IMG/VR virus record: IMGVR_UViG_3300014205_000212 | Location: 10,107-74,106 of that record | DNA length: 64,000 bases | Direction: 5' to 3' (one strand) | Source: a virus | Lineage: Duplodnaviria; Caudoviricetes | In this document: positions 1,826 to 24,450 of the stretch, in pieces | Layout of the letters: each line of letters opens with the position of its first letter | Numbering within the stretch: position 1 is the stretch's first letter | Position numbers and translations under genes: made by a program | The notes under the pieces: model-generated | What the model was told of the DNA's origin: nothing | The model's input: the letters and a program-made list of their open reading frames with translations, nothing else | Database searches by the model: none

Positions 1826-2068
1826 TTACGGCTGTGATATGCGATGTTTGGCGATTACGAGAACAAACCTATCAAAATACATAGAACGTGGACAATACAA
1901 TATTATGGAAACGATAAACTATTTATATGAATAAGAAAGAAAAAAGAATCCAAATTATCGCAATGCTTTACCAAAACATGGATAAAGTAGATGCAGATGA
2001 AACATTAAAACTTATTGATGAATTCAGCACTATGGCAGTAATAAATAATGCCGTATTACCGCATGTTA
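1826..2068 (+). repeat. attC-like site E1 (hybrid or degenerate, TTAC...GTTA)
   Basis: Left arm TTACggctgtgaTATGcgatgtttggcg does not pair with right arm aatgccgtattaccgcatGTTA. That right arm is 21/22 identical to the right arm of E15. Confidence 0.75.
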
Positions 2069-2187
2069 TAAACCGAAGGGAACTGTTAATTGATTTTTCT
2101 ATGAAAAGAAATAAAGCACCTGAAGAATTTAAGGCGCAATATGAGAAAGAAGTTGATGACTACTTAAAATCAATTAATAGTTTATAA
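1927..2187 (+). CDS. Cassette gene, hypothetical; starts inside E1
   Basis: NAVLPHVINR is encoded by the E1 right arm; the stop is the TAA of the next TAAC (2185-2188). Confidence 0.75.
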   Translation: MNKKEKRIQIIAMLYQNMDKVDADETLKLIDEFSTMAVINNAVLPHVINRRELLIDFSMKRNKAPEEFKAQYEKEVDDYLKSINSL

Positions 2188-2308
2188 CGGTTACAAATAT
2201 GAAACGGCAGGGATTACGTGCAAAACCCTATCAGCCGACTACAAATGATGAATAGTAGCACAAAGTATAAAATAAGCATTACGCCCTGCTGTTTTATATT
2301 TGATGTTA
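2185..2308 (+). repeat. attC-like hairpin site E2 (124 nt)
   Basis: TAACggtta-caaatatgaaacggcaggg pairs with ccctgctgttttatatttg-atGTTA, with G.T wobbles only. Confidence 0.92.
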
Positions 2309-2329
2309 TGGTGCGTTTATTTTACTAAC

Positions 2330-2557
2330 ATGGTTGATTTTAACGGATTAGACACAAAAAAAAATGCTGTAAAACTTCAAGTAAAAACAGCAACGATATT
2401 TATTTGGAAAGAAAGTAACTTAACTGCCCTTATTTCTGTTAGAGATAAAGATGGCAAAGCATTATGGCAAAAGGCGCATTGTGATGCTTCTGACTTACCA
2501 TTTGCTATTGAAGTTGCTAACAGAAATATACAGACTGGTATGTTTGAAACGGATTAA
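2330..2557 (+). CDS. Cassette gene, hypothetical
   Basis: Lies between GTTATGGTGC (2305) and its reverse complement GCACCATAAC (2560-2569); likely start ATG 2330. Confidence 0.75.
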   Translation: MVDFNGLDTKKNAVKLQVKTATIFIWKESNLTALISVRDKDGKALWQKAHCDASDLPFAIEVANRNIQTGMFETD

Positions 2558-2565
2558 ATGCACCA

Positions 2566-2653
2566 TAACGGTCGGCAATATGAAACGGTTGCCTTGTAAG
2601 ACGTTTCAAATTTAGTAATAGCCTATCGGCAACTGTTTTTATATTGCTTGTTA
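2566..2653 (+). repeat. attC-like hairpin site E3 (88 nt)
   Basis: TAACggtcg-gcaatatgaaacggttgcc pairs with ggcaactgttttatattgc-ttGTTA. Confidence 0.92.
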
Positions 2654-2674
2654 GGCACAGTTAAATTTAAAACC

Positions 2675-2845
2675 ATGAAAAGAATAACTATTTGGTTAAT
2701 GAAGCGCCAACTAAAAGCAGCAAAAAATTATCGTAATAATTTAGATAATAGTATTGTAATTAAAGCATATGACTACGTTATAAAGAATTACGAAGATACA
2801 ATAATGTTTTTGCGTGCTGAACTTAAATCGAAGGCACGGTCTTAA
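2675..2845 (+). CDS. Cassette gene, hypothetical
   Basis: Between GTTAGGCA (2650) and TGCCTAAC (2849-2856); likely start ATG 2675 (MKRITIW...). Confidence 0.7.
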   Translation: MKRITIWLMKRQLKAAKNYRNNLDNSIVIKAYDYVIKNYEDTIMFLRAELKSKARS

Positions 2846-2852
2846 TTATGCC

Positions 2853-2978
2853 TAACGTTGATAATATGAAAAGTTGGGGGATTAAAAGAGCAAAAATATC
2901 GGGTCGCAACCGAAGCCTTGACGGTAGCTGGGAGGTAACATACACCGCTGCACCCCCAATTTTTTATATTATGTGTTA
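2853..2978 (+). repeat. attC-like hairpin site E4 (126 nt)
   Basis: TAACgttg-ataatatgaaaagttggggg pairs with cccccaattttttatattat-gtGTTA. Confidence 0.92.
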
Positions 2979-3017
2979 GCAACTGGGCTTTATTTATAAA
3001 CTTAAAACTAAATAAAA

Positions 3018-3224
3018 ATGGAAGTAAATGATTTAATAGACCTTAGATTCACTTCATCTACTAAGGGACCCATTCCTATCTCAAGAACTATAGATGGGAA
3101 ATTTGCCCTTATTAATGGAACATTCAGAGGTATAATTGACATAGGCTCTACTTGGAAATGTAGAATAGATAAAATAGAAAAGTTTAAAGTTATAATAAGT
3201 CCAATATCATTACAGAAATTATAA
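3018..3224 (+). CDS. Hypothetical protein
   Basis: 68-aa ORF with an A-rich initiation region; no closing complementary box found. Confidence 0.65.
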   Translation: MEVNDLIDLRFTSSTKGPIPISRTIDGKFALINGTFRGIIDIGSTWKCRIDKIEKFKVIISPISLQKL

Positions 3225-3248
3225 TAATAATTAATAAATTTCAATATT

Positions 3249-3641: not shown

Positions 3642-3649
3642 ATAGAATA

Positions 3650-4039
3650 ATGAAAAGAGATATTGATTGGAAAGGATTTCAAGAAAATGTAGAAACCTAT
3701 ATTAAAAAAAATAGAGGCATAGGTGCAAAGTTTTTAAAAATATTATTCGATAATTATTCTACAAAGGGTATAAAAAATTTGAATATACAAAAAACTGTAA
3801 AAAGTGATTTAGGTATTATTAGCGATAATACTTCTAACTTAGAAAATATTTTAGGAATGCTACACGAATTTAGGAATTGGAATAGGGAATGGGATATTTA
3901 CTTTGCAAAACACCCTAAAAATGTTGATGAGTTTGCAAAATTATTGTCAAAAAGATACAAAGTTAAACGTGTTAACGTTAATTATAAAAAATCGGTGAGG
4001 AGTTCGGAGCTACGGAACTATCAACTGATACAAAACTAA
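3650..4039 (+). CDS. Hypothetical protein whose 3' end reads through the left arm of E5
   Basis: The TAAC of E5 is out of frame, so the C-terminal NYKKSVRSSELRN is encoded by the hairpin arm. Confidence 0.6.
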   Translation: MKRDIDWKGFQENVETYIKKNRGIGAKFLKILFDNYSTKGIKNLNIQKTVKSDLGIISDNTSNLENILGMLHEFRNWNREWDIYFAKHPKNVDEFAKLLSKRYKVKRVNVNYKKSVRSSELRNYQLIQN

Positions 4040-4097
4040 TTTAGTAGCAAGTGGTTTAAAATAAGCACGATACCCCACTGTTTTTTATAATGTGTTA
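3973..4097 (+). repeat. attC-like hairpin site E5 (125 nt)
   Basis: TAACgtta-attataaaaaatcggtgagga pairs imperfectly with atccccactgttttttataat-gtGTTA. Confidence 0.85.
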
Positions 4098-4146
4098 TCG
4101 GCTGCCTTTTTAAAATTTAATTATTCACTTAAAAACTTAAATAACA

Positions 4147-4479
4147 ATGGAACAAATTAGAAATTCAGACCTTATCGAAGGTAAGACTATTGAAAGAACG
4201 GATTATTTAGATAATAAATTCTTTCTATTTTTTACAGACAATACCTTTTGTATAATATCAGGTTGTGGCTGGGATGAAAAAGATGTTGAATTTAATGAAA
4301 ATGAATTTGAAGTTGAACCTAATACAAGCAACTACGATGATCTTAAAAGTATTGGAATTATTGATGAAGCTACCTTCTTTAAATTTAAAGATCTTAAAGA
4401 ACAAAATAGCAAAGAGTATAGAAAGCAACAAGACATTAAACAACTTAATGAATTACGCAAAAAGTATCCAGATGCGTAA
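4147..4479 (+). CDS. Cassette gene, hypothetical
   Basis: 110-aa ORF after GTTATCGGCTGCC (4094); the closing box is decayed (GGTTGCCG at 4480). Confidence 0.75.
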   Translation: MEQIRNSDLIEGKTIERTDYLDNKFFLFFTDNTFCIISGCGWDEKDVEFNENEFEVEPNTSNYDDLKSIGIIDEATFFKFKDLKEQNSKEYRKQQDIKQLNELRKKYPDA

Positions 4480-4560
4480 GGTTGCCGTATTAAATACGAG
4501 AAATAAAATTTCAATTTACAACAAAACTACACGGGCAAAATGGCGTATGAGCCCGTGTTA
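4480..4560 (+). repeat. Degenerate attC-like site E6 (TAAC and left arm missing)
   Basis: Right arm ggcaaaatggcgtatgagcccgtGTTA is intact; upstream only ggttgccg remains. Confidence 0.65.
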
Positions 4561-4595
4561 GCAGTTGTTTTTATTAATCTAAATATAAATTTATT

Positions 4596-4973
4596 ATGAA
4601 ATACGAAATTAAATATAAAGAACTTGAAAGTTATTTAACTTCTTTACCTGAAAAAGAATTTCAGGACAAAAAATATAATCCAAACGGAATTATTAAAGAG
4701 GCAGAATTGATGACAGATATTGACTTTTTTAAAAAAGATAAATCGAAATTCCCAATAAGTAAAGTTATTGATTACGGAATGCCATTTTTACTTGATGCTT
4801 TAGGCAATGATTTATCTATATGTATTTTAACTAAAAGAAAATTTAAGCTACCAACTGGAAGACCAATACAAGCTAAATTAGACCGTACAATTATATCAAA
4901 TTGTCGAAAAATATATGGAACACCTTTGAATGGATGCTGGGTAATACCTGAGCAGTTCGTGGTTTTAAAATAA
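4596..4973 (+). CDS. Cassette gene, hypothetical
   Basis: Between GTTAGCAGTT (4557) and AACTGCTAAC (4972-4981). Confidence 0.8.
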   Translation: MKYEIKYKELESYLTSLPEKEFQDKKYNPNGIIKEAELMTDIDFFKKDKSKFPISKVIDYGMPFLLDALGNDLSICILTKRKFKLPTGRPIQAKLDRTIISNCRKIYGTPLNGCWVIPEQFVVLK

Positions 4974-4977
4974 CTGC

Positions 4978-5101
4978 TAACCGTTGAAGCTATGACCAGT
5001 AAAGGATTACGGAGCGATGCACTATCCACCGATACTAAGCTGGATGCGAGCTACAACGTTTGATTAACCACCACAACCTTTATTGGTTATAGCTTGTGTT
5101 A
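4978..5101 (+). repeat. attC-like hairpin site E7 (124 nt)
   Basis: TAACcgttg-aagctatgaccagtaaagg pairs with cctttattggttatagctt-gtGTTA. Confidence 0.92.
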
Positions 5102-5147
5102 GTGCCAGTTATTTATTTGATTATCAATTTTTAAAAACAAAAATACA

Positions 5148-5714
5148 ATGAAGAAAATTAGCACACTTTACAAAAAAGACCCGAACGATTTAAGCAGGGT
5201 AATTAATGAAATTGCACCCGAAAATAAATGGGTAATTGATGGCGAAGGTATTCCGACACGCAAGTTTGATGGAACTGCAACCGCTATTATTGATGGCGAA
5301 TTATACAAACGATACGATGTTAAAAAAGGTAAGCAAGTGCCACTAAATGCGATACCATGCCAAGAGGCTGACGAAATTACAGGACACCACCCGCATTGGA
5401 TTAAATGCGACCGAAACAACCCAGCTGATAAATGGCATTTTGTTGGTTTTGATGCCTTAGAAAATAAAGAAGATGGAACTTATGAACTTTGTGGCGAAAA
5501 ATTACAAGGCAACCCAGAACATTTAACTGGACACATTTTAGTTAAACACGGAATAGAAGTATTACCAGTAACCGACTTTTCATTTGAAGGAATAAAAAAC
5601 TACTTATCAAATTCTGAATTAGATATTGAGGGTATTGTTTTTCATCATAAAAACGATGGGCGTATGTGCAAAATTCGCAAATGCGATTTCGGTATCAAGC
5701 GGGCTGTTTTATAA
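5148..5714 (+). CDS. Cassette-borne RNA-ligase-like nucleotidyltransferase (DUF5565-like)
   Basis: Motif I TRKFDGT (KxDG), GTYELCG, motif IV EGIVF, motif V CKIR; bounded by GTTAGTGCCAG (5098) and TTGGCACTAAC (5715-5725). Confidence 0.75.
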   Translation: MKKISTLYKKDPNDLSRVINEIAPENKWVIDGEGIPTRKFDGTATAIIDGELYKRYDVKKGKQVPLNAIPCQEADEITGHHPHWIKCDRNNPADKWHFVGFDALENKEDGTYELCGEKLQGNPEHLTGHILVKHGIEVLPVTDFSFEGIKNYLSNSELDIEGIVFHHKNDGRMCKIRKCDFGIKRAVL

Positions 5715-5721
5715 TTGGCAC

Positions 5722-5845
5722 TAACGGATTATATATGCGTTCGGTTGCTGACGCAAAACAGCACCAACTTAATTTAAAAAACAAAAGTAAAATGAAAGCA
5801 CAAGACAACAAAAAAGAGAAAGCAACTGACGTATATACGTTGTTA
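5722..5845 (+). repeat. attC-like hairpin site E8 (124 nt)
   Basis: TAACggatt-atatatgcgttcggttgct pairs with agcaactgacgtatatac-gttGTTA. Confidence 0.88.
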
Positions 5846-6001
5846 CCTGCCGTTTTAGATGAGATCATTGAATACATTGAAGATACTGAACAAACCATTG
5901 ATGGTGAATGGGGTTCGTGTAGAGACTTGAAAGAGTTGATTAGAGATAAACAAATGCCTGAATTATATGATAAGTTAATTGCTTTGAGAAATGGCAGGTA
6001 A
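5792..6001 (+). CDS. Cassette gene, hypothetical; starts inside the E8 loop
   Basis: ATG 5792 (MKAQDNKKEKATDVYTLLPAV) follows an A-rich tract; the stop is the TAA of TAAC 5999. Confidence 0.7.
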   Translation: MKAQDNKKEKATDVYTLLPAVLDEIIEYIEDTEQTIDGEWGSCRDLKELIRDKQMPELYDKLIALRNGR

Positions 6002-6035
6002 CTCACTTATATATACAGTTCAAAATATTGAAGTA
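5999..6035 (+). other. Array-terminal conserved site T1 (attI-like candidate)
   Basis: TAACtcacttatatatacagttcaaaatattgaagta is similar to the sites at 13048 and 24334; an imperfect inverted copy of the gttcaa...gaagt part lies at 6118-6134. Confidence 0.75.
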
Positions 6036-6286
6036 TGCCAAAACTAATAGAATCGGTAGATATAAAAAATAGAATAATAGAACTGATTAATAATAATAAT
6101 TTATTTATTAATGATGAACTTCAAATTTTTGAAGCACTTATTAATAAATATAAACCTATATCCATTTCTAATTGTTCTAATCTTTTAGGAAAAAAATATA
6201 ACTCTATAAAGTATATGGTTAACCATAATTCTTTACCTTTTATTTCTATTAATAATAGTAAACATATTTTAAAATCTTTAATATAA
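6035..6286 (+). CDS. Small helix-turn-helix protein (excisionase/MerR-like pattern)
   Basis: ISISNCSNLLGKKYNSIKYMVNHNSLPFISIN resembles the 'S.S.AA.LLG.S..T.Y.M...G.LP' HTH pattern; ATG overlaps the end of T1. Confidence 0.45.
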   Translation: MPKLIESVDIKNRIIELINNNNLFINDELQIFEALINKYKPISISNCSNLLGKKYNSIKYMVNHNSLPFISINNSKHILKSLI

Positions 6287-6290
6287 TTAT

Positions 6291-6752: not shown

Positions 6753-6771
6753 TAATATAATTAATTTAATT

Positions 6772-7053
6772 ATGAATTACGAAGAATATTTACAAAAAGG
6801 GAAAGAACTCGAATCAGAATTTGAGAATAAGAAAACAGAATTAATGAAAGAATTTGTAAAGGCAAATAATCCTTATAAAATTGGTGACAAAATAACAGAC
6901 CATATTGGCTCAATAATTATTGAAAAAATGGGGTTTGCGTGGGGTTTCGGTAATAAGCCATGTGCCACATATACAGGTTTAGAACTTAAAAAAGATGGCA
7001 CTCCAACTAAAAAAGAATCACGTAGACAAGTGTGGCAGTCAAATATTGTCTAA
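6772..7053 (+). CDS. Hypothetical protein; stop coincides with the TAAC of E9
   Basis: 93-aa ORF with codon usage like the cassette genes. Confidence 0.75.
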   Translation: MNYEEYLQKGKELESEFENKKTELMKEFVKANNPYKIGDKITDHIGSIIIEKMGFAWGFGNKPCATYTGLELKKDGTPTKKESRRQVWQSNIV

Positions 7054-7062
7054 CATATGTTA
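7051..7062 (+). repeat. Collapsed attC-like site E9 (TAACatatGTTA)
   Basis: The two core boxes are only 4 nt apart; the downstream box GTTACCGCCAG approximates the reverse complement of ATGGACGGTAAC (7697-7708). Confidence 0.6.
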
Positions 7063-7101
7063 CCGCCAGTTTTTATTTATTAATCTTAATATCAAAACTA
7101 T

Positions 7102-7707
7102 ATGAAATCATGGAAAGAACCTACAAAAGAAAGATGGGGAATGGATTATCGTCCCGGAATTACAGAAGAATTTTCACAACTAATTAAATTAGCTAAAGAA
7201 AAGATTGAGCCATTTTCATATAAAGAAATTTCAAGATATACTTATTACTTTAAAGTAAAAGGTGAGGAAATTTCGAGTGAATTTGATTGCTGCGATGATG
7301 AAAAATGTATCAAAGAAGCCAAAAAAGCTATAAGAAAACAATACGGGAAAAATACGCATATTGAAGAATGTTATTCGGATAATGACGAAGACCATGAGAG
7401 TATTGAAATATGTAGTATTTGTGGAAAACCTATGAATGAATATCTTACTTGGTGTAATTCAGAATTAGAGTACTTAGAAGAAAATAAACCTTGGGACGCT
7501 CAATTTTTAGCTGATGAAGGTTTTGTAATTGGCGTTATTTTAGATAGTACTCCAACTATGGATTGTAATATTTCAGATTATGCAAAATATCAAAAAGGCG
7601 AAACACTTCAAAAGGCATTACAATCAAGAGAAGAATTTTTTCAAAGAATCGGTAAATTAGCTCAATCAGTAATTGATGCAGACTTCGCTGTCTTAAATGG
7701 ACGGTAA
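7102..7707 (+). CDS. Cassette gene, hypothetical (CxxC-containing)
   Basis: 201 aa with CSICG; the stop is the TAA of TAAC 7705. Confidence 0.8.
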   Translation: MKSWKEPTKERWGMDYRPGITEEFSQLIKLAKEKIEPFSYKEISRYTYYFKVKGEEISSEFDCCDDEKCIKEAKKAIRKQYGKNTHIEECYSDNDEDHESIEICSICGKPMNEYLTWCNSELEYLEENKPWDAQFLADEGFVIGVILDSTPTMDCNISDYAKYQKGETLQKALQSREEFFQRIGKLAQSVIDADFAVLNGR

Positions 7708-7828
7708 CGGTGAAGCTATGACCAGTAAAGGAATGCGGGCTTCGTGCCTGTCAAAATAGTAGAAACTTAATAGAAAATACAAAATGAAAATTAACGCAGA
7801 AACCCCCAATTGCATAAACATATTGTTA
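7705..7828 (+). repeat. attC-like site E10 (124 nt, hybrid arms)
   Basis: The left arm shares 22 identical nt with the E7 left arm; the right arm cccccaattgcataaacatattGTTA is of another type. Confidence 0.8.
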
Positions 7829-8254
7829 TATGCTGCTTTTTCTTCTATTCCATTAGATATTGAAGGTTCAAATTTAGAAAATACTGGTTGGATTCCTTCC
7901 GAAAATGATAAAAAGTATATGGATGGAAAAAACTATTTACTTGCTATTGAAGAAGCTAATTCCAAAAATGCTAAAGTAATATTTAAAAATGTATCTCTAC
8001 AATGGGATAGTTGTGATTGCGGAGATTATTATGGTTGTTCGCATGGGAATTATGTTTATGATATTGACATAATAAATGAAAATAAAAAAATTAACATAGA
8101 ATATACCGATGGAGATTCTCTGGAATTTTATAACAATGGGAAGTCCTGTAAGATTCCAACAGCAGGAGCAACTATTTTTGATTTTATAAGAATGTGTCAA
8201 ATTTGTGAAATTGAATTAGAGCTAACAGATTACGCAGAAACTCTTTTAAAGTAG
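7784..8254 (+). CDS. Cassette gene, hypothetical; starts inside E10
   Basis: TPNCINILLYAA is encoded by the right arm and box; closing box GTAGCATATAAT (8251-8262). Confidence 0.8.
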   Translation: MKINAETPNCINILLYAAFSSIPLDIEGSNLENTGWIPSENDKKYMDGKNYLLAIEEANSKNAKVIFKNVSLQWDSCDCGDYYGCSHGNYVYDIDIINENKKINIEYTDGDSLEFYNNGKSCKIPTAGATIFDFIRMCQICEIELELTDYAETLLK

Positions 8255-8258
8255 CATA

Positions 8259-8280
8259 TAATTTATTTATATGTGCATAA
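8259..8280 (+). other. Degenerate array-terminal site T2
   Basis: TAATttatttatatgtgcata resembles TAACtcgtttatatgtatag of T3. Confidence 0.4.
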
Positions 8281-8292
8281 AAAGTAATACTT

Positions 8293-8493
8293 TTGCATAC
8301 TAATCAATTGAAATATAGACTATTAAATAAAAGCATTAAATTAAGTAAAAACGAGTTGCATTACTTATATATTTTGAAATTTAAATACAAAATGAAAGTT
8401 AATCAATTTATCCGTGATGCTATCATCGAAAAATTAAAAAAAGATGTTCCAGTAATAAGAATAAATTTTAATAAAGAATATGAACCATTCTAA
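8293..8493 (+). CDS. Small ribbon-helix-helix-like DNA-binding protein (start uncertain, TTG)
   Basis: KSIKLSKNELHYLYILKFKYKMKVNQFIRDAIIEKL fits a strand-helix-helix pattern. Confidence 0.4.
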   Translation: MHTNQLKYRLLNKSIKLSKNELHYLYILKFKYKMKVNQFIRDAIIEKLKKDVPVIRINFNKEYEPF

Positions 8494-9954: not shown

Positions 9955-10358
9955 TAGAAGAAGAAGCATTAGAAGAAATAATAAAGTTAGCAAATGGTAC
10001 ATCAGACCCTGCTACAATAAAGGCTTATTATAAACAACAATTCTTTAATGGAAAGAAGATGCTATTTGATGGTACTATCATTACAGCACTACTTATATTA
10101 GAAAAATACAAGGCTTACACAGATTATTGGGATTCTTCATTTGGAAATAAAAATCCTCAATATATAAAATCTGTAGATAAAAAAATGTCTATTTCTGATT
10201 TCTTAGTAAAAGGAGAATATAATAAAACATTTATTCTTCCGGCAAGAAATAGAGATATATATCTATTTGGTACTAATAGTCTTAATGAACTTAAAGTAAA
10301 ATTAATTAATTTTAATAAAAGACTTAATGAAAGAAAGAACACTTCCCGAGGGAACTAA
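9951..10358 (+). CDS. Hypothetical protein upstream of the helicase
   Basis: 135 aa, overlaps both neighbours. Confidence 0.65.
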   Translation: MIEEEALEEIIKLANGTSDPATIKAYYKQQFFNGKKMLFDGTIITALLILEKYKAYTDYWDSSFGNKNPQYIKSVDKKMSISDFLVKGEYNKTFILPARNRDIYLFGTNSLNELKVKLINFNKRLNERKNTSRGN

Positions 10359-11709
10359 AATACCACCTCATGATTTAAGAATAGAAGAAACTATATTAGG
10401 TCAGTTAATGATAGAAGTAAATAAAAATACTATTAATGCTATTAGCATCATTAATGAAGATGATTTTTATAAAGAATCACATAAATTAATTTATAGAACA
10501 ATATCTTTATTATATAAACGAGATAATGTTTGTAATTTCATTATTGTATGTCATGAATTAATGAAGATTCAAGCATTAGAAATAGTAGGTGGTAGTTATA
10601 TTATAAGTACTTTATCTTCTAATGTATCTTCTACTTTAAATGTTATTTATCATGCAAGAATTCTTAAACAGTTATCAATTGCTAGAAAATTAATTGCTAT
10701 TTCATATAATGTTCAAACTTCTGTATATGAAATGAAAGATGTAAAAGAGATAATAGATACTTTAAATAAAGACATTAATAATATCTATAAAGATGTTGAT
10801 AAAGAAGATTCTATTGTCTTAGCTTCTAAAGTATCTGATGAATTAATGAAAGATTTATTAAATGATAATTTTGTATTAAATAAAAAGAATACAGGATTTA
10901 AAATTTTAGATAAAATAATTGGTATTACATTAAATAAAATATTATTAGTTGCTGGTCCTGCAAAACATGGGAAAAGTAAGTTTATAAGTATGATAATGAT
11001 GAATATTTTAGAAAAATATTCTGATGTAAGTATATTTTGGATTACATTAGAAGATTCTGCTAAAGATATCATTGCCGGTTATATTGCTTCTAAAATTTTA
11101 ATTACTCCTAAAGACATCATTGAAAGAACATATTCTAAAGACTGTAATTCTATTATTAAACCTCATATAGAGAAGTTTAAAACCTTTGATATAGAATTCC
11201 AAGAAAAAAGTGCTAAAGTGTCTCAATTTGGCATTAAATTCATTGAATTCTGTAAAATGCGAAAAGGAAGATTTAATATTTTAATAATTGATAATATGCT
11301 TTCATTATCTGATAAAGATGATTTTAAAGGTAATGATAATGGAATGTATGATTATATTATGCTTCAGTTATTAAATATTAAACAAAGGACTAATGCTTTA
11401 ATAATTCCTATTCATCATTATAGAGATGCTCAACAAGCAGAAGGAAAGATAGAAAGTGCATATAGACCAAGATTAATAGACATGAAAGGAACAGAAGCTT
11501 TTAGAAGAGTTCCTAATCAAGTATTACTATTAAATAATCCGGGAAAATATAAAGATTTAGTTATAGAATATAAAGGTCATAAAGACTTACTAAAGAGTAT
11601 CTTTATATGTGATACTGGTGCTAATAGGAATGCTTCCGATGATGATGATAGTGCTTTAATAAGATTCTTTCACACACTAGAATTTAATATTTTTGAAGAA
11701 ATAAATTAA
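10327..11709 (+). CDS. dnaB: Replicative DNA helicase, DnaB family
   Basis: N-terminal PPHDLRIEETILG, Walker A AGPAKHGKS, LIIDN Walker B region. Confidence 0.92.
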   Translation: MKERTLPEGTKIPPHDLRIEETILGQLMIEVNKNTINAISIINEDDFYKESHKLIYRTISLLYKRDNVCNFIIVCHELMKIQALEIVGGSYIISTLSSNVSSTLNVIYHARILKQLSIARKLIAISYNVQTSVYEMKDVKEIIDTLNKDINNIYKDVDKEDSIVLASKVSDELMKDLLNDNFVLNKKNTGFKILDKIIGITLNKILLVAGPAKHGKSKFISMIMMNILEKYSDVSIFWITLEDSAKDIIAGYIASKILITPKDIIERTYSKDCNSIIKPHIEKFKTFDIEFQEKSAKVSQFGIKFIEFCKMRKGRFNILIIDNMLSLSDKDDFKGNDNGMYDYIMLQLLNIKQRTNALIIPIHHYRDAQQAEGKIESAYRPRLIDMKGTEAFRRVPNQVLLLNNPGKYKDLVIEYKGHKDLLKSIFICDTGANRNASDDDDSALIRFFHTLEFNIFEEIN

Positions 11710-11733
11710 CGGTGAGCGTATGAAATCGTGTTA
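11707..11733 (+). repeat. Collapsed attC-like site E11
   Basis: TAACggtgagcgTATGaaatcgtGTTA; its TAA is the DnaB stop codon. Confidence 0.75.
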
Positions 11734-11776
11734 GTTGCAGCCTTTTATTTAGTAATTAATTTTTAAAAACAAAAAT

Positions 11777-12124
11777 ATGAAAGTAACATTAAACATTGAA
11801 AACGATGCCGAAATGAGAGCATACGTTAAAGATTGCATTAAAGGACAAGTATTGTCAATTGTTCGTGAAGAAATGCAAGAAATGATTAAAGAAGAGTTGA
11901 ACCGAAAAATAAAAGGGTTGAACGATTCCAATTTTCAGCGGATATTTACAGATGCGATGGTGAAGAATGTAAAAGACATTTTACAAGCAAATCACAATGT
12001 GAAAAGCTGGGATAATAATTGGATTAAACCTATTATAGCTTCTTTAATGGAGCAATATGTAAAGCAAAACGAATCGTTAATTAATCAACTTGCAAAAGAG
12101 AAGGTTAAGTTGCTGGTTGGTTAG
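11777..12124 (+). CDS. Cassette gene, hypothetical
   Basis: Between GTTAGTTGCAGCC (11730) and GGTTGCAACTAAC (12124-12136). Confidence 0.8.
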   Translation: MKVTLNIENDAEMRAYVKDCIKGQVLSIVREEMQEMIKEELNRKIKGLNDSNFQRIFTDAMVKNVKDILQANHNVKSWDNNWIKPIIASLMEQYVKQNESLINQLAKEKVKLLVG

Positions 12125-12132
12125 GTTGCAAC

Positions 12133-12338
12133 TAACGGCTGCGGGTGTGACATCGGTTTTTTTGCGGATTAACAACTAAAATTTAAAAATATGGTACAGA
12201 TAGTAGAACAGACAAAGGAAGAAAAAATGGCAATGTATATGAAATTGTCTAAGAAGCAAATAGCAGAAATGCTTATTAATTGCAATAACATTATAACAGC
12301 ACTAACGCAAGCAAAAAACTGTGTTATACCTGCTGTTA
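12133..12338 (+). repeat. attC-like hairpin site E12 (206 nt, long loop containing a gene start)
   Basis: TAACggct-gcgggtgtgacatcggtttttttgc pairs with gcaaaaaactgtgttatacctgc-tGTTA. Confidence 0.88.
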
Positions 12339-12436
12339 TGGGTGAGTTAACTTGCGATAGTTGCGGTTGCCATCCAAATACAATATATCAAACAAGCAAG
12401 GGTCGGTTTTGTGAACGGTGCAATCCAGCAAGTTAA
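12191..12436 (+). CDS. Cassette gene with C-terminal CxxC...CxxC; starts inside E12
   Basis: CVIPAVMGE is encoded by the right arm; CDSC...CERC. Confidence 0.7.
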   Translation: MVQIVEQTKEEKMAMYMKLSKKQIAEMLINCNNIITALTQAKNCVIPAVMGELTCDSCGCHPNTIYQTSKGRFCERCNPAS

Positions 12437-12443
12437 TTACCCA

Positions 12444-12565
12444 TAATGGCTGCGGGTTTGAAATGTAAGGGATTTCAGAACGCTTCCGTATCACACGAGA
12501 TAAATTAACTTAGTAGTAACCAGCTTTACAACAGATAAAACCCTTATATTTTAAACCCGTTGTTA
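12444..12565 (+). repeat. attC-like hairpin site E13 (122 nt, TAAT variant)
   Basis: TAATggctg-cgggtttgaaatgtaaggg pairs with cccttatattttaaacccg-ttGTTA. Confidence 0.88.
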
Positions 12566-12583: not shown

Positions 12584-12748
12584 ATGATACAATATAAAAC
12601 GAAGCAATTAATTCAAGTTCCTTGTAAAAATAAACTTACAGGTAGCATTGAAACATTTGAGATAATGGCTTATGATTTTTCAGATGCTAAAAAGGAACTT
12701 GAATGGGTTTTAGATTTACGATGGATAATTGGTTATGGTTCAATGTAG
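12584..12748 (+). CDS. 54-aa cassette gene (not in ORF track)
   Basis: MIQYKTKQLIQVPCKNKLTGSIETFEIMAYDFSDAKKELEWVLDLRWIIGYGSM*; it fills the space between matched boxes at 12562 and 12748-12761. Confidence 0.7.
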   Translation: MIQYKTKQLIQVPCKNKLTGSIETFEIMAYDFSDAKKELEWVLDLRWIIGYGSM

Positions 12749-12757: not shown

Positions 12758-12882
12758 TAACGGTTCGTGTATGACCCGTTTGGGATTAAATAGTACAAAC
12801 TTTCAAAATGGAACAAATGAATATAAATGACTTAGACTTTCAGCAAACTACCGAACCCCAAATGGGTTATGACACGGTGTTA
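12758..12882 (+). repeat. attC-like hairpin site E14 (125 nt)
   Basis: TAACggtt-cgtgtatgacccgtttggg pairs with cccaaatgggttatGacacg-gtGTTA, leaving one extrahelical G on the right arm. Confidence 0.92.
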
Positions 12883-13050
12883 TCGGCAGGTATTTGTGAT
12901 ACTTGTTCTATTCCTAAAATGATGAATACAGGCGATGGTATAAATGAACCATCTGACCCTATTCTTTATTGTCATAAAATGAAACGTGAAATATGTCCAG
13001 AACCACCAGAGGATAGGATGGTCGAATGTCGGTTTTATACTTGCCGATAA
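12808..13050 (+). CDS. Cys-rich cassette gene; starts inside E14
   Basis: PQMGYDTVLSAG is encoded by the right arm; the stop is the TAA of TAAC 13048. Confidence 0.7.
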   Translation: MEQMNINDLDFQQTTEPQMGYDTVLSAGICDTCSIPKMMNTGDGINEPSDPILYCHKMKREICPEPPEDRMVECRFYTCR

Positions 13051-13153
13051 CTCGTTTATATGTATAGTTCAAAAAAATGAAGTAGTCTATATATTAAATA
13101 GTTATATGTTTTATTGTATTCATTTTATATAATTATACTTCAATTTATTGAAA
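13048..13153 (+). other. Array-terminal conserved site T3 with downstream imperfect inverted repeat
   Basis: TAACtcgtttatatgtatagttcaaaaaaatgaagta; inverted copy tacttcaatttattgaaa at 13136-13153. Confidence 0.75.
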
Positions 13154-13196
13154 TAATAGTAAATTAATAAATAATAGTAAACTAATAAATAATAAA

Positions 13197-13583: not shown

Positions 13584-15026
13584 ATGGAAATAATAATTGA
13601 AATACAAAATTTAGGATTACTTAAAGATTTTAAAGCAGAATTTAAGTCAGGTAATCTCTATTACATACAAGGAAGTAATGGACAAGGTAAGACAACTCTT
13701 TTAAAGGCTATAGAGACATTATCTACAGGTATAGTACCTAAAGGAGATAACTTAACTAAAGGAGAGACTAATGGGTCTGTAAAAGGAACATATGAACTTG
13801 ATGGTGCTAATGGTGTTAAATATAAAGTTATATGGAACCTTACAGAAAAAACTAACACATTTACAATAATAGATCCTTCAACTAATGTTCTTAAATCTAC
13901 TTCAAGAAATAATGTTATAGCAGATATTTTTAAATATAATTCTTTTACTGTTGATGAATGGTTTGCTTGGGGATTAACTGCTGAAGGAAGAAGAAAGCAA
14001 TGTGATATATTATTAAATTTATTACCGGAAGAAGCTAAACAAGAATATTTAAAAATAGATTCGGAGATAAATGAACAAGTAGGAACTCTTTATATTAAAA
14101 GAACTACAGAAAATAAAGAATATGATAAGATTAAAGCTGTAGTAGATTCTAATAAATTATCAGAAGATGAAGAGAAATTATTATTAGAAAAAGATAAAAT
14201 AAATAAAGATTCCGAAGAAATAAATAAAAAATATGAATCAGCTTTATCTAATGATAGAACTACTTTAGAAACAGAACTATCTACATTAAAAGAAAGTCAA
14301 GAGACTAAATTATCTCAGAAGAATAAAGATATTCTATCTGAAGATACATCAATATTAGAACAACAAACTTTAATTAAAGAATATGAAGAGAAGATAAAGA
14401 CAGCTAATAAGAAGATTGAAGAATGTAATAATAAAAAGAAAATATCTATCGATATATTTAAATTAGATATAGCTAAAATAGCAAATAGAAAGATAGAAAT
14501 TGACGAAGCATTATCTAAACTTATTGTAGTAGATATAGAAACAATAAAAAAAGAAAAATCAGAAATAGATACTAAGATAACTAATATTACTTTAGCAGAA
14601 AATAAGAAGAATAATAATATTACTAATAATAAGAATCTGCAAACTAAATTTGATATTATAGAAGATCTAAATAAAACTATAGAAGATAAAAGAAAGAGGA
14701 AGAAAACTATCATCGAAGAAAATAAACTTCCTTCTGATTTGATTATCATAGAAAATGGAGAGGTGTTTTATAAAGTTAAAGATGGTAAAGTTCCATTTAT
14801 AGAATCTAATGTATCTTATTCAGAAGGAGGAATGATAGTTGCTAATTTGATGGCTAAAATCAATAAAACATTACCTATATGGTTAATAGGTAAAGCAAGT
14901 GAATATGATAATGATAGAATAAAAGAATTTGTTAAACTTGCTAAAGATAATAATGGAATTATTATCGCTGATAGAGTTATTGAAGAAGCAAACACACCAT
15001 TGACTATTAAATGTATTGAAAATTAA
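13584..15026 (+). CDS. SMC/SbcC/RecN-like ABC-type ATPase with long coiled coil
   Basis: Walker A QGSNGQGKTT, central K/E-rich coiled coil, degenerate signature SYSEGG. Confidence 0.8.
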   Translation: MEIIIEIQNLGLLKDFKAEFKSGNLYYIQGSNGQGKTTLLKAIETLSTGIVPKGDNLTKGETNGSVKGTYELDGANGVKYKVIWNLTEKTNTFTIIDPSTNVLKSTSRNNVIADIFKYNSFTVDEWFAWGLTAEGRRKQCDILLNLLPEEAKQEYLKIDSEINEQVGTLYIKRTTENKEYDKIKAVVDSNKLSEDEEKLLLEKDKINKDSEEINKKYESALSNDRTTLETELSTLKESQETKLSQKNKDILSEDTSILEQQTLIKEYEEKIKTANKKIEECNNKKKISIDIFKLDIAKIANRKIEIDEALSKLIVVDIETIKKEKSEIDTKITNITLAENKKNNNITNNKNLQTKFDIIEDLNKTIEDKRKRKKTIIEENKLPSDLIIIENGEVFYKVKDGKVPFIESNVSYSEGGMIVANLMAKINKTLPIWLIGKASEYDNDRIKEFVKLAKDNNGIIIADRVIEEANTPLTIKCIEN

Positions 15027-20016: not shown

Positions 20017-20177
20017 TATGAAAGTTACTGTGACTTATATCAAAGTAATCAAGAAAGTTATAAAAGCGAAAGACAACGCAGAACTTTTAATACTTATTGA
20101 TGAAAAGTGCCCTAAAGGTTATATTTTACAAAAATTTTAATTTTATAATTTAGTAATAATTTTTAAAACGAAATAAA

Positions 20178-20618
20178 ATGAAAAATACTATTGATAAATT
20201 AAAATTGAAAAAATATCATTCTAAAATAATAAAAGCTAAAATAATAACTAGTAAAAATGCATACGATTATATTAGACAGTTTTACTTTGATGATATAGAT
20301 ATTTATGAAAGTGTTTTTATATTACTCATAGATGCCTCTAATACAACAATAGGATATGCTAAAATAAGTCAAGGAGGAGTTATAGGAACAGTTATAGATG
20401 TTAAGTTAATATGTAAATATGTTATAGATAGTTTAGCGATGGGAGTTATATTAGCTCATAACCATCCTACAGGTAACCTTAAAGCAAGTGATTCTGATAT
20501 GCAAATAACATCTAAAGTAAAAGATGCTTTAAATATCTTTGATTGTAAATTATTAGATCATATTATACTTAGTTCTAATAAATATTTATCCATGGCAGAT
20601 GAAGGAATTTTAATTTAA
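20178..20618 (+). CDS. radC: RadC-like JAB/MPN domain protein
   Basis: E...SQGG...VILAHNHPTGNLKASDSD...LLDHIIL. Confidence 0.92.
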   Translation: MKNTIDKLKLKKYHSKIIKAKIITSKNAYDYIRQFYFDDIDIYESVFILLIDASNTTIGYAKISQGGVIGTVIDVKLICKYVIDSLAMGVILAHNHPTGNLKASDSDMQITSKVKDALNIFDCKLLDHIILSSNKYLSMADEGILI

Positions 20619-20624
20619 AATATT

Positions 20625-21287
20625 ATGAAAAATAAATATGTTTATTATATAATGGAAACTGATATATGGCAATCAAATTATTCAGAAACTCTATTTGGTA
20701 TTTATGATGATTATGATATAACTTTTAAAGAGTTTAATAAATTATCAGAATTTTATAATAAAGAAAATATTAATGGAGATATTATTATGTATTATACTAT
20801 TATAAATCAAAAACATGAATCTATAAAAATTATGTCTAAATCTGGTAATTAATGAATAAAGAAGAAAAAGAATTATTTATAAATAATTTTATAAATAGTA
20901 TAAAAGAAGATTTATTATCTAAATTAGATTCTATTCCTGAAAATTGGGATGGATTTGAATTAAGACATTATATTAATATTAAATTCGAACAAGAAAATTT
21001 ATGGAAAAGAAAAATATTAAGTAATACAGATAAAATAAGAAAACAAAGATGTCTTAATGATATTTATAATAATGGGTTGTAGTGTATTAAATTGGAGTAG
21101 GGAGTTACATAATAAAAAAGTAACTCCTGACCGTAATGATGGTAAAATAACAGTTAAAATACCAAATGGATATATCACATTTTCCACTGAAGAAGAAAAA
21201 CAAGATTGGCTTAAAAGATATTTAAATAAACAAATTGTTGAAAATAAACCTTTAAAATTTAATCGTTATAAAAAAAGAAATAAATGA
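20625..21287 (+). other. Three short hypothetical CDSs (20625-20852, 20852-21082, 21057-21287)
   Basis: Coupled ORFs on the + strand. Confidence 0.6.
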
Positions 21288-21709
21288 AAGCAGAAGAATA
21301 TAAAGACATTTTAAATCATTATATGTATCGTTTTAAATTAGAACATACAGATGAATATCATAATTATATAAAATTAAAATATTTCTATACAAAAAATTCA
21401 GAAATTACAGTAGATAATATTATAAAACTTGTATGTGAAGGAGAGAAAGTAGATATAGAAGATATGAAAAGAACCGGAAGAAATAGAAATTTAAATATTC
21501 AACCTAGACAAATAGCTTCTTATCTTATTACTAAACACATTAAAGGACTTACATTAGAATCAATAGGTAAAGCTTTAAGAAATGAACCTTTAGATCATGC
21601 AACAGTTATTCATGCTAATAAAACTATTAATAATCTTATAGATACAGATAAGAGAATGAAAAATAAATTAATTCATTATGAAGACATCATTAAAGCTTGG
21701 AAAGAATGA
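21284..21709 (+). CDS. Stand-alone DnaA C-terminal (domain IV) HTH protein
   Basis: PRQIASYL...TLESIG...DHATVIHA matches the DnaA domain IV signature. Confidence 0.85.
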   Translation: MKAEEYKDILNHYMYRFKLEHTDEYHNYIKLKYFYTKNSEITVDNIIKLVCEGEKVDIEDMKRTGRNRNLNIQPRQIASYLITKHIKGLTLESIGKALRNEPLDHATVIHANKTINNLIDTDKRMKNKLIHYEDIIKAWKE

Positions 21710-22362: not shown

Positions 22363-23119
22363 TGAAAACATATAAACCAATAACTAAAAAAATAATAATA
22401 GATATATTAACCGATGTAGAACATTATAATCAAAGTCCATTAAATTTAATAATTAATGGATATAATATTGATGAAAATATCACTTGTAGAAAAATATGTG
22501 TTAAAAAAGGTAGAATAGAATATTTCTATTATAAAGATTCTCCTGAAAGTATGGAAAGATTTAAAATGTTACTTAACCAAATATTAAATAGAAATGAAAA
22601 AAGTAAGTATAGTAATAGTATCAAGAATGTATAATGTAATACATGAAGATGATTTATCTGAAACAGGAATATTAAGATTAGCAGAAAACAACTTTGATAA
22701 TGAAATTAACCTATTAACTTCTAATTTAGAAGATGGTGATTTTGCTTATGAAATAAAAAGTACTAACGATTATAAAGTTTGATATGGAACAGTCATTTAT
22801 AGAAAAAAGAATTGCAAGTAAAGCAACTGAAAGAGTAGATAAAGATTATAGAGAATTTATAGATTTTTGTAATAAAAATCCTTTTGCTAAACAAATACAA
22901 ATTAAAGTAAATAATATAAATATTTTTTTAACTGGTAATAATTATAATAATCAAGAATTATTTTCTCCTCATAATACAAATAATAAAAATAATGATTTTA
23001 CCAACTATATAGATATATTCAATAAGCTTCAAAAAAAATATGAAAAAGAAGAAACAGAAATTTTACTTGATAAATTAGATAGTGTAAAATATTTATTTGA
23101 TAACTTAAATAACATATAA
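22362..23119 (+). other. Three short hypothetical CDSs (22362-22634, 22594-22782, 22784-23119)
   Basis: Coupled ORFs on the + strand. Confidence 0.6.
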
Positions 23120-23124
23120 TTAAT

Positions 23125-23490
23125 ATGCAAAAACATACAGAAATATATTTAAATCATTTTCATCTTCATCAAGGAGAAGTTATAGTAAGTGAGATATCCG
23201 GAACTACCAATGGTATAAACATTCATCATTTAGATTCTAAAAAGATGGGTGGTAGTGATACTAAAGATTATATAGAGAATCTATGTGCTATTACCATTAC
23301 AGAACATGAGTTATGCCATAGATATAAAGAATATAATGAATATGTAAAGAAGATACATGAATTATTCTTAACTATTAATCCTTATTCTTATCCTCATCTC
23401 TTTCTTGATAATACAATTTATAAAAAATATCAAAAAGATTTATATCAGATACTTAAAGAATGTGGACATTATAAAAAATATAGTAAATGA
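23125..23490 (+). CDS. HNH-family nuclease-like protein
   Basis: IHHLDSKKMGGS...ENLCAITITEHELCH. Confidence 0.7.
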   Translation: MQKHTEIYLNHFHLHQGEVIVSEISGTTNGINIHHLDSKKMGGSDTKDYIENLCAITITEHELCHRYKEYNEYVKKIHELFLTINPYSYPHLFLDNTIYKKYQKDLYQILKECGHYKKYSK

Positions 23491-23505
23491 ATATAGATAA
23501 TAATG

Positions 23506-23633
23506 TAACGGCTGGCGGTATGCGGTCGTTGCCGAACTATCAAATTAGTAATAACTTAAATACGAGAACAAAATTATGAATACAGAAAAAAGTATCAACG
23601 AAGCGGAAGGCAATGCCGTATTACCGCTTGTTA
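23506..23633 (+). repeat. attC-like hairpin site E15 (128 nt)
   Basis: TAACggctg-gcggtatgcggtcgttgcc pairs with ggcaatgccgtattaccgc-ttGTTA, with single-base bulges. Confidence 0.9.
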
Positions 23634-23944
23634 CCACCCGTTTTTTATTGCTCAGTCTGAAATGGACTAACAAAAAAGATAAGTGGTTTACGTTTTGGCG
23701 TGAAAATTCAGCAGGGTATTGCTGGTTCAAAGAATGGTGTGGACTTTATGATATTGAAAAAGCAAGAGAAACGCACGGACACGACAATACTATTATGGTT
23801 GATGGATTCCTTATTAAACACCTTTGGAAAGAAATTGAATACGAAGGTAAAAAACGTGAAATACTTCCAAATACGGAAGAGGTGCGTAAATTTTTATCTA
23901 TTCAACTTCGAGATTTAAAAGCATTGCACCGCACTACTCATTAA
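23576..23944 (+). CDS. Cassette gene, hypothetical; starts inside E15
   Basis: GNAVLPLVTTR is encoded by the right arm and box; closing box ATGGGTGGTAAC (23945-23956). Confidence 0.8.
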   Translation: MNTEKSINEAEGNAVLPLVTTRFLLLSLKWTNKKDKWFTFWRENSAGYCWFKEWCGLYDIEKARETHGHDNTIMVDGFLIKHLWKEIEYEGKKREILPNTEEVRKFLSIQLRDLKALHRTTH

Positions 23945-23952
23945 ATGGGTGG

Positions 23953-24042
23953 TAACGTTTTGCGTATATACGAGGTACGCCTTAACGATGAATTTTAAAT
24001 TACAACAAACGCTTATAGGCGTATCTTGTATATACGCTGTTA
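23953..24042 (+). repeat. attC-like hairpin site E16 (90 nt)
   Basis: TAACgtttt-gcgtatatacgaggtacgcc pairs with ggcgtatcttgtatatacgc-tGTTA. Confidence 0.92.
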
Positions 24043-24057
24043 GCACCAGTACGGATT

Positions 24058-24324
24058 ATGAGAACTGAACTAAATTTATATGATGACAAATTAAAACAAG
24101 CAATACTTGATTTGCCATACAATACAAAGATTGATGATAATGGTGTTGATTGCGATATGGTTTTCATCCCTGAAAGTGATTATGGATTTGCTGAAATATA
24201 CAGAATGTACGATGATATTTTAGTTTTTTTAATCCCAACTTACGGAGGAACACCATCATTGCAATATCACGTTAGTAGACACGCTATTGATTATCTGATT
24301 TCTGAATTGAAAAAGATAACGTAG
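24058..24324 (+). CDS. Cassette gene, hypothetical
   Basis: Between GTTAGCACCAGTAC (24039) and GTATTGGTGCTAAC (24324-24337). Confidence 0.8.
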   Translation: MRTELNLYDDKLKQAILDLPYNTKIDDNGVDCDMVFIPESDYGFAEIYRMYDDILVFLIPTYGGTPSLQYHVSRHAIDYLISELKKIT

Positions 24325-24333
24325 TATTGGTGC

Positions 24334-24450
24334 TAACTAGTTTATATATATAGTTCAAAAAAATGAAGTAATAGATTTATTAAGGCTTTCAACTTAGTTT
24401 TTATAATTATTTTTATACCTATTATATTTTATTACTTCATTTTTTTGAAC
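24334..24450 (+). other. Array-terminal conserved site T4 with a perfect 20-bp inverted repeat
   Basis: TAACtagtttatatatatagttcaaaaaaatgaagtaat; gttcaaaaaaatgaagtaat (24353-24372) is inverted at 24431-24450. Confidence 0.78.

Follow-up and report, generated by a model that had tools for sequence, protein, structure and literature searches.

The 64,000-nt window analyzed here spans bases 10107-74106 of a linear, 74,106-bp IMG/VR virus record (IMGVR_UViG_3300014205_000212), a fragment with a CheckV completeness of 39%; site and gene coordinates follow window numbering unless stated otherwise. The phage, which is marine, of the lytic type and a candidate crAss-like phage, has a backbone guanine-plus-cytosine (GC) content of 24%, and its genes are laid out in a plus-strand arm (1-26,400) of small early or replication genes and a minus-strand arm of large genes. 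The subject of this report is a series of hairpin sites resembling the attC sites of integrons, which occur in the plus arm as five arrays with short genes between them.

A total of 16 sites lie in five clusters on the plus arm, just as the original prediction had described (Table 1). With a custom scanner for TAAC...GTTA hairpins (spacers limited to 7 nt on the 5' side and 4 nt on the 3' side, G.T pairs allowed, block shuffles as the control), ten plus-strand elements score 34-53 against shuffle maxima of 28-32, all of them inside the five clusters and none elsewhere in the 74-kb genome. An eleventh element has a TAAT core, and the other five sites have mutated cores (TTAC and TAAG), are collapsed (two sites) or are hybrid, so that the inventory consists of 11 hairpins able to fold, which measure 88-206 nt, and these 5 degenerate, collapsed or hybrid sites. 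The clusters are also compositional islands, with a GC content of 33.1% compared to 23.7% in the remaining plus arm. By itself, the loose TAAC/TATG and TATA/GTTA motif in which the sites were initially described is not enriched, as TAAC-N7-10-TATR has 62 matches versus 63 expected and TATA-N4-9-GTTA has 66 versus 69, and a generic count of GTTA+6 inverted repeats does not exceed the shuffles; only the G/C-rich pairs within the clusters are specific. A search of the window against Rfam at the gathering threshold gave 0 matches, and a covariance model built from the short site hairpins (R1) recovers eight window sites at E<1e-3.

Table 1. Sites, cassette genes and backbone genes (window coordinates; scanner scores are for the plus strand unless marked, R1 scores in bits)
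Feature	Position	Strand	Scanner	R1	Description
E1	1826-2068	+			First site of array 1; long, degenerate, TTAC core; gene 1927-2187 starts in loop
E2	2185-2308	+	46 (shuffle maximum 32)	36.4	Full hairpin, 124 nt
E3	2566-2653	+	40	62	Full hairpin, 88 nt
E4	2853-2978	+	43	30.8	Full hairpin, last element of array 1
E5	3973-4097	+	37		First site of array 2; backbone ORF 3650-4039 runs into E5
E5b	4477-4560	+			Degenerate, TAAG core, ends GTTA-GCAGTT
E6	4978-5101	+	42		Full hairpin
E7	5722-5845	+	34	41.8	Full hairpin
T2	5999-6037	+			Candidate attI-like terminal site, ends array 2; direct-repeat family D1, 70% identical to T4; alignable with host attI-like sites
E8	7051-7062	+			Collapsed site TAACATATGTTA, opens array 3
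E9	7705-7828	+			Hybrid, unfoldable; gene 7784-8254 starts in loop
T3	8259-8297	+			Degenerate terminal site, TAAT core, ends array 3; aligned with other terminal sites
E10	11707-11733	+			Collapsed, directly 3' of helicase gene, opens array 4
E10b	12133-12338	+	43 (27 on -)		Long hairpin, 206 nt; gene 12191-12436 starts in loop
E11	12444-12565	+		33.4	Full hairpin, folded, TAAT core
E12	12758-12882	+	43	35	Full hairpin; gene 12808-13050 starts in loop
T4	13048-13086	+			Candidate attI-like terminal site, ends array 4
E14	23506-23633	+	38	30.9	Full hairpin, opens array 5; gene 23576-23944 starts in loop
E15	23953-24042	+	53		Full hairpin, 90 nt
T5	24334-24449	+			Candidate attI-like terminal site (24334-24372), then inverted repeat
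Array 1 genes	1927-2187, 2330-2557, 2675-2845	+			No Pfam or PHROG matches
Array 2 genes	4147-4479, 4596-4973, 5148-5714, 5792-6001	+			5148-5714 RNA-ligase-like
Array 3 genes	7102-7707, 7784-8254	+			7102-7707 of a Cys-rich family common in marine metagenomes
Array 4 genes	11777-12124, 12191-12436, 12584-12748, 12808-13050	+			No family match above threshold
Array 5 genes	23576-23944, 24058-24324	+			23576-23944 phrog_23101
Backbone gene	10327-11709				DnaB-like helicase
Backbone gene	13584-15026				SMC/AAA-type ATPase, phrog_1499
Backbone gene	20178-20618				RadC-like JAB protein
Backbone gene	21284-21709				DnaA C-terminal helix-turn-helix (HTH) protein

On the plus strand, a site begins with AAT-X'6-TAACG, followed by a spacer of 3-6 nt and a stem of 19-22 bp, the outer part of which is usually TATG in the 5' arm paired with TATA in the 3' arm; a loop of 10-150 nt, the returning stem, a spacer of 0-3 nt and TGTTA-X6-GTT complete it. 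Recurrent loop motifs include CTATCA...TAGTA(G/A), and GTTA is followed by conserved leaders (repeat families D3 and D7). The claim that the arms vary in sequence while the fold is conserved is upheld by an alignment of ten short members of the family from five genomes, in which TAACG pairs with TGTTA in 10/10 sites, 90.9% of the cells are paired compared to 74% in shuffles and 35-53% with the partner slid, and 11 of the 18 pairs show compensatory changes, a number reached by 0 of 500 shuffles. RNAalifold found no structure in a MAFFT alignment of the long elements because their arms are out of register, and the short-element alignment was used instead. The plus strand outscores the minus strand in 9 of the 10 scanner elements because its mismatches are G.T, which become C.A on the minus strand. 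Folded as single-stranded DNA, E2 forms its long stem on the plus strand only, and E15 reaches -26.6 kcal/mol (z -6.0) on the plus strand and -16.1 on the minus strand. In the properties by which attC sites are recognized, the family has a stem of at least 13 bp with 11 compensatory pairs, spacers of 5 nt (5') and 2 nt (3') and lengths of 49-206 nt. The predicted attC signature holds for the AAC/GTT core, the unpaired spacer, the long imperfect stem and the variable loop but not for the full R-box consensus RYYYAAC/GTTRRRY, since GTTRRRY is fit only by GTTAGGC, in 2 of 15 sites, and the conserved core is (T)AAC/GTT(A) in the phage and CAAC/GTTG in the chromosome of a Lacinutrix host.

The sequences that flank the hairpins are related to each other across the genes. 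Each GTTA is followed by six bases (X6) whose reverse complement stands directly in front of the next TAAC, giving GTTA-X6 ... X6'-TAAC, and this pairing is perfect in 9 of the 15 units as scored, or in 11 of 15 with two TAAT-core sites put in register by eye. It extends to 9 nt with T.G wobble, while non-cognate combinations of ends are perfect in 1% of cases and the two flanks of one hairpin pair at the random level (2.5/6). Thus, GTTA-TAAAC at 2065 in E1 pairs with GTTTA-TAAC at 2185, GTTAGCAGTT at 4557 in E5b with AACTGCTAAC at 4972-4981, GTTACCTGCC of E7 with GGCAGGTAAC at 5993-6002, GTTA-TATGCT of E9 with AGCATA-TAAT at 8253-8262, GTTAGTTGCA at 11730 in E10 with TGCAACTAAC at 12127-12136 and, imperfectly, GTTACCGCC of E8 with GGACGGTAAC at 7705. 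Such a pattern would be expected of units that, like integron cassettes, circularize and recombine at one side of the hairpin. Sites also resemble one another in parts: the end of the E1 3' arm (GCCGTATTACCGCATGTTA) is nearly identical to the E14 3' arm, and the 3' half of E5 is 72% identical to that of E2 (repeat family D6). E9 cannot fold because it is a chimera, combining a 5' arm almost the same as that of E6 (4978) with a 3' arm like that of E4 (2978). This structure suggests that an exchange or deletion once took place within the loops, which would also have given gene 7784 a new N-terminus.

In arrays 2, 3, 4 and 5, native DNA gives way to TAAC and a hairpin at the start, and X'-TAAC (X'-TAAT in array 3) leads into a conserved noncassette sequence at the end, whereas array 1 passes after E4 directly into AT-rich backbone genes without a terminal site. 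The terminal sequence, TAAC-T-N-GTTTATAT(A/G)TATAGTTCAAAAAAATGAAGTA, is 84-100% identical between arrays 4 and 5, 70% identical in array 2 and degenerate in array 3. A crossover at the 5' AAC box fits this layout, and each hairpin would then belong to its downstream gene; consistent with the latter, six genes (starts at 1927, 5792, 7784, 12191, 12808 and 23576) begin inside the hairpin loop and read through the 3' arm; gene 5792-6001, for instance, starts in the loop of E7. The phage terminal sites occupy the position of attI, and they have (C/T)AAC-T-N-G-TT(T)ATAT in common with integrase-adjacent sequence in three host genomes. Since this shared stretch is short, only ~12 nt in AT-rich DNA, the likeness to attI is suggestive only.

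Each unit usually carries one short gene, as had been predicted, and this is correct for ~15 units, whose listed ORFs (open reading frames) are all 15 on the plus strand. A Pfam search of the small cassette proteins gave no matches. The product of 5148-5714 matches the RNA ligase family phrog_14301 at 7e-71 as well as Pfam RLIG1, and its gene is 68% identical in DNA to the RNA ligase gene of Cellulophaga phage phi10:1, around which no flanking hairpins were found. The product of 7102-7707 has 49 homologues at 53-83% identity, and in two other viral contigs (IMG/VR), the gene again ends in ...GCA-TAAC followed by a hairpin. A protein identical to it is also recorded on a second contig of 92,501 bp, which is probably a more complete assembly of the same phage. 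Homologues of the 23576-23944 product align only from residue 21, just past the hairpin arm.

The same site family is present in other phages, with R1 matches in Polaribacter phages P12002L and P12002S, Cellulophaga phage phi12:1, Flavobacterium phage filifjonk9-1 and IMG/VR contigs, and all phage matches at E<1e-3 are on the sense strand. Clusters of attC sites lacking integron integrases (CALINs) have been reported in virulent phages, P12002L included, by Qi et al. 2023 (PMC9892861), and the P12002L attC1 oligonucleotide of that study has the architecture TAACGG...TGTTA. In the early regions of P12002L and P12002S, at least 10 boxes of the form AAT-N6-(T/C)AACG-N6-8-TATATG lie on the gene-sense strand and flank methyltransferase, Mom-like and HNH genes; filifjonk9-1 has an array of at least 8 sites; and in phi12:1, the sites surround a methyltransferase gene with 90% DNA identity to its P12002L counterpart. 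Taken as a whole (hairpin, gene and X'-TAAC), this DNA methyltransferase cassette has ~90% nucleotide identity between phi12:1 (L005 5878-6790) and P12002L (region of L003 38026-38945), and it is ~87% identical in many Flavobacterium phages of unrelated genera.

P12002L and P12002S are ~99% identical and allow the comparison of related phages that was proposed along with the original prediction. In the early region, P12002S has three extra cassettes, and the pair also differs by a three-for-three replacement and by one further extra cassette. These whole-cassette differences are bounded by the AAC box: all six breakpoints fall in or within a few bases of a (T/C)AAC box, where identity ends at ...AAC(GT) and resumes at AAC.... 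The idea that accessory genes are reshuffled as cassettes is therefore supported by box-bounded gain, loss and replacement in these sibling Polaribacter phages, that is, in relatives by site family and not in the window phage itself.

The family extends to the chromosomes of Flavobacteriaceae. A Lacinutrix metagenome-assembled genome, reached via the methyltransferase, has 16 R1 matches, and its 299-kb contig contains an array of at least 12 sites with a CAAC/GTTG core in which the X/X' rule is kept. Approximately 1.5 kb beyond the last site of this array lies the gene for a 277-amino-acid tyrosine recombinase, which scores 217 bits against NF040815 (XerA/integron integrase; cut-off 220) and 213.6 bits, in two stretches, against TIGR02249 (integron integrase; cut-off 265), and whose best solved relatives are V. 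cholerae IntIA (VchIntIA, 2a3v) and XerA/XerC-like proteins. In a sample of 101 Flavobacteriaceae genomes searched with R1 at E<=1e-4 under strict filters, 44 had matches, so that the custom covariance-model scan suggested earlier finds the same family both in phages and in chromosomal arrays. An IntI/Xer-like gene adjoins an array in all 5 genomes checked, and the recombinases linked to those arrays match TIGR02249 only at ~2-178 and ~238-314, skipping ~179-237. The Flavobacteriaceae arrays are integron-like systems with a recombinase that would fall below the curated threshold for integron integrases. The Lacinutrix array also contains an RVT_1 reverse-transcriptase ORF (L018 241-1353 (+), equivalent to G001:C78:80240-81352) on the strand opposite the remaining cassette genes, and in one chromosomal region (G067:C14:157000-176999, L028), at least 27 sites, each ~145 nt long, are packed into 20 kb, with further matches over ~50 kb, to about 208 kb.

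The orientation of the genes distinguishes the phage arrays from those of the hosts. Of the six window intervals tested, five have an ORF on the strand hit by R1, the sixth is without an ORF of at least 40 amino acids, and none of that length lies on the opposite strand, whereas in the host arrays the longest ORF of an interval between sites is opposite the R1-hit strand in 59 cases and on that strand in 2 cases. The hosts follow the classical arrangement, in which the ORFs occupy the top strand and the bottom strand folds. In the phage, the cassette polarity is inverted relative to the host integrons: the gene is on the folding strand and 3' of the hairpin, in place of an ORF opposite the folding strand with attC downstream. 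By our derivation, the folding strand of classical integrons reads AA/C-hairpin-GTT, cassette body, ...AA/C-attI (the slash standing for the crossover point). The order in the phage is the same, and its arrays thus keep the integron geometry with the gene in sense.

In our view, the hairpins are attC-type sites for single-strand recombination and belong to an integron-like system that is native to Flavobacteriaceae and to their phages, a reading to which we assign a probability of roughly 0.7. The anatomy of the sites, their membership in one family, the host arrays with their recombinases and the box-precise cassette differences in sibling phages are all demonstrated by the data above. From these we infer the acting enzyme, a circular intermediate and continuing cassette exchange in the window phage. 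The mobile unit on the plus strand would consist of C-spacer-stem-loop-stem-GTTA-X6, the gene and X6'-TAA; once circularized, its two ends would rebuild one fully paired hairpin foot, and units would be stacked head to tail via crossover at the 5' AAC box. Stacking would take place at four or five phage sites, the 3' side of which is marked by the attI-like TAAC-T-N-GTTTATAT..., and the enzyme is most likely a host IntI/Xer-like tyrosine recombinase of the kind that adjoins the chromosomal arrays. As the gene is on the folding strand 3' of its own hairpin, the loop could carry the start codon together with the 5' leader, and the first ~10-45 residues could be encoded by the 3' arm. A more ambitious version of this scheme, which we hold only tentatively and at a little under even odds, is that phages of Flavobacteria maintain their own sense-polarity cassette pool in which the hairpin supplies leader, start and N-terminus, that host IntI/Xer-like integrases lacking the canonical IntI insertion integrate the circles at the phage attI-like sites during lytic infection, and that protein N-termini as well as genes are swapped in this way among unrelated phages (crAss-like phages, siphoviruses and podoviruses).

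Several results weigh against this interpretation or limit it. The 74-kb contig, a 39% fragment, has no match to PF00589, PF00239 or PF01797 (tyrosine, serine and Y1 enzymes, respectively) at E<=10, nor was a recombinase found in the complete genomes of P12002L and P12002S. With no recombinase in the contig, and hence no adjacent intI as in a complete integron, the arrays are of the CALIN type (at least two attC sites less than 4 kb apart without an integrase nearby), with five clusters of 2-4 sites spaced 0.2-0.7 kb apart. The integron-like reading originally offered is thus sustained in its attC architecture, complementary ends and recombinase-linked host arrays and has to be amended to integrase-less, CALIN-type arrays of inverted polarity. 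No close relative of the phage emerged from a megablast of 20 kb against phages, from a search of IMG/VR with the helicase or the terminal-site pattern, or from tblastn of the helicase against phages, which gave matches of 21-25% identity only, and without such a relative, no gain or loss event is documented for the phage's own arrays. One methyltransferase cassette violates the X/X' rule. IntI1 did not recombine P12002L attC1, the one P12002L site of such architecture assayed by Qi et al. (PMC9892861). One P12002L/S breakpoint lies a few bases 3' of the spacer, in a shared TATAT stretch and not at AAC, which makes short-homology exchange at the boxes possible. As 5 of the 16 sites no longer fold, part of the system in the phage may be a fossil. 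Finally, the strand that folds well is also that of the mRNA, and the loops contain leaders, which makes an additional or alternative role at the RNA level plausible, possibly alongside recombination.

Taken to its full extent, such a role would make the hairpins mainly RNA elements of early polycistronic transcripts, acting in processing, stabilization or translation control, and cassette exchange would be a by-product of homologous or microhomology recombination at short boxes. A similar homology-based exchange has reportedly been proposed for the PeSL mobile regulatory cassettes of T4-type phages, said to have been described by Arbiol et al. in 2010 as a promoter plus a terminator-like stem-loop. 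That the strand that folds well through G.U pairs is the transcribed one in every phage examined, that start codons, leaders and shared motifs are located in the loops or just 3' of GTTA, and that one sibling breakpoint is not at AAC would all be accommodated by it. The host chromosomes, however, carry the same sites antisense to their genes, so that the conserved fold cannot be an mRNA feature there and an RNA role cannot explain the site family; these arrays also adjoin tyrosine recombinases, and complementary cassette ends are expected of a circular DNA intermediate, not of local RNA hairpins. Moreover, no intrinsic-terminator-like site was found in the window, with 3.1 expected, and promoter-like sites (sigma-70-type consensus only) are not enriched, at 95 versus 89.6 expected. 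The PeSL cassettes resemble the phage arrays in their small accessory early genes in hyperplastic regions, their repeated stem-loops and their modular shuffling between related phages, but each boundary has an early promoter and a terminator-like stem-loop, neither of which signals occurs in the window, where the hairpins are instead 90-200 nt long, have an attC-like foot and belong to a family shared with recombinase-linked host arrays. On balance, we regard hairpins that serve chiefly as RNA elements as unlikely.

Somewhat more doubtful still is that the arrays are inert remnants, cassettes captured long ago or blocks copied from another phage, with sites that no longer recombine here. The collapsed, hybrid or core-mutated state of 5 of the 16 sites, the lack of a recombinase in the contig and the lack of relatives to reveal turnover are what this would predict. 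Neutral decay in a 24%-GC genome would, on the other hand, erase stems and end complementarity, and 11 sites keep long stems with compensatory changes, the ends are still perfectly complementary in the majority of units and the sequence of the terminal sites is 84-100% conserved from array to array. Folding that is specific to one strand, a 4-nt box preceding the hairpin, a unit ending in the same tetranucleotide as precedes it and tandem stacking would also fit non-autonomous IS200/IS605-like (PATE-type) elements, for which an HUH Y1 transposase would insert single strands 3' of TAAC and give tandem arrays. Such elements are defined by a Y1 HUH transposase and distinct left-end and right-end subterminal hairpins, whereas the contig has no Y1_Tnp (PF01797) and there is a single hairpin per unit; the host arrays are linked to tyrosine recombinases and not to HUH enzymes, and the TAACG/TGTTA core pairs like an attC R box. 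This origin is, in our estimation, highly improbable.

The attC-type reading invites comparison with the CALINs of virulent phages (PMC9892861), which, like the window arrays, are attC-like hairpins without an integrase in lytic-type phages, and P12002L carries the same site family as the window. Only 2 sites were called in P12002L in that study, in divergent directions, compared to the at least 10 boxes found here, and its 'attC2' is, in the present analysis, an array-closing terminal site. Not described there are the site family, the inverted gene polarity, the gene starts in hairpins, the terminal sites and the host arrays with their recombinase, nor does the study list a crAss-like or a Cellulophaga or Flavobacterium phage. 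The earlier statement that such arrays had no known description in crAss-like phages is accordingly correct for that group, with the qualification that attC clusters had already been described in virulent phages, without the features reported here.

The resemblance to sedentary chromosomal integrons (IntI, attI and attC, the inverted-integrase layout included) is close. In common are hairpins that are conserved in structure but not in sequence, with an AAC/GTT core, a spacer that stays unpaired and a loop that varies, ends that rebuild a site on circularization and, as proposed for the phage, crossover at the AAC box on the folding strand and stacking beside a candidate attI-like site, and the Flavobacteriaceae arrays of the phage site family likewise adjoin an IntI-like gene. 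The differences are that the phage is without intI and has several short arrays per genome instead of one, that the associated host enzyme scores 213 bits on TIGR02249, below the cut-off of 265, and does equally well as XerA, that RYYYAAC/GTTRRRY is not fully kept in the phage and that the phage gene is on the folding strand 3' of the hairpin. To our knowledge, integrons are regarded as bacterial devices, with phages so far at most occasional carriers of a few attC sites. Here, about a quarter of the early region consists of five cassette arrays, and their site family is also that of large chromosomal arrays in the host family. If the attC-type reading is correct, it would account for the mosaic 'hyperplastic' early regions of marine phages by a concrete mechanism that can be tested, and it would explain the spread of methyltransferase and other likely anti-defense genes between unrelated phages. 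It also points to a Bacteroidota branch of integrons whose recombinase would not be called IntI by current integron finders and to a polarity that places the recombination site within the transcript and, in part, within the translated sequence.

The crAss-like label of the phage is consistent with the two-arm layout and with a 5,514-amino-acid ORF at 35857-52401 (-), which contains a single DFDID motif at residue 4062; in the phi14:2 virion RNA polymerase, DFDID has been named as the catalytic motif (bioRxiv 10.1101/2020.03.07.982082). The giant ORF had no PDB sequence match by phmmer, and PDB and PHROG searches in general were nearly empty and so provide little further support for the label. 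The DnaA_C HTH protein, which is not a recombinase, is the sole protein common to the phage fragment and Polaribacter phages P12002L and P12002S. No tRNA genes were found in the 10 kb upstream of the window. In the long noncoding divergent region between the arms (genome 6.2-8.7 kb; L001 6250-6560 and 7820-8020), there are C-rich runs and a palindromic stretch of ~180 nt, ATATATATTGTATAGGTA ... TACCTATACAATATATAT. A perfect 21-bp AT-rich inverted repeat, 24353-24373 with 24429-24449 (GTTCAAAAAAATGAAGTAATA ... complement), overlaps T5 and folds equally on both strands (z about -4.4 to -4.5), and a weaker form of it lies 3' of T4 (13070-13155). A conserved leader, TTATTTAGTAAT.AATTTTTAAAAACAAAAATA-ATG, is found at 5096-5145, 11728-11777 and 20148-20183, that is, 3' of two different cassette sites and 5' of the backbone RadC-like gene, and may be a phage promoter or translation leader.

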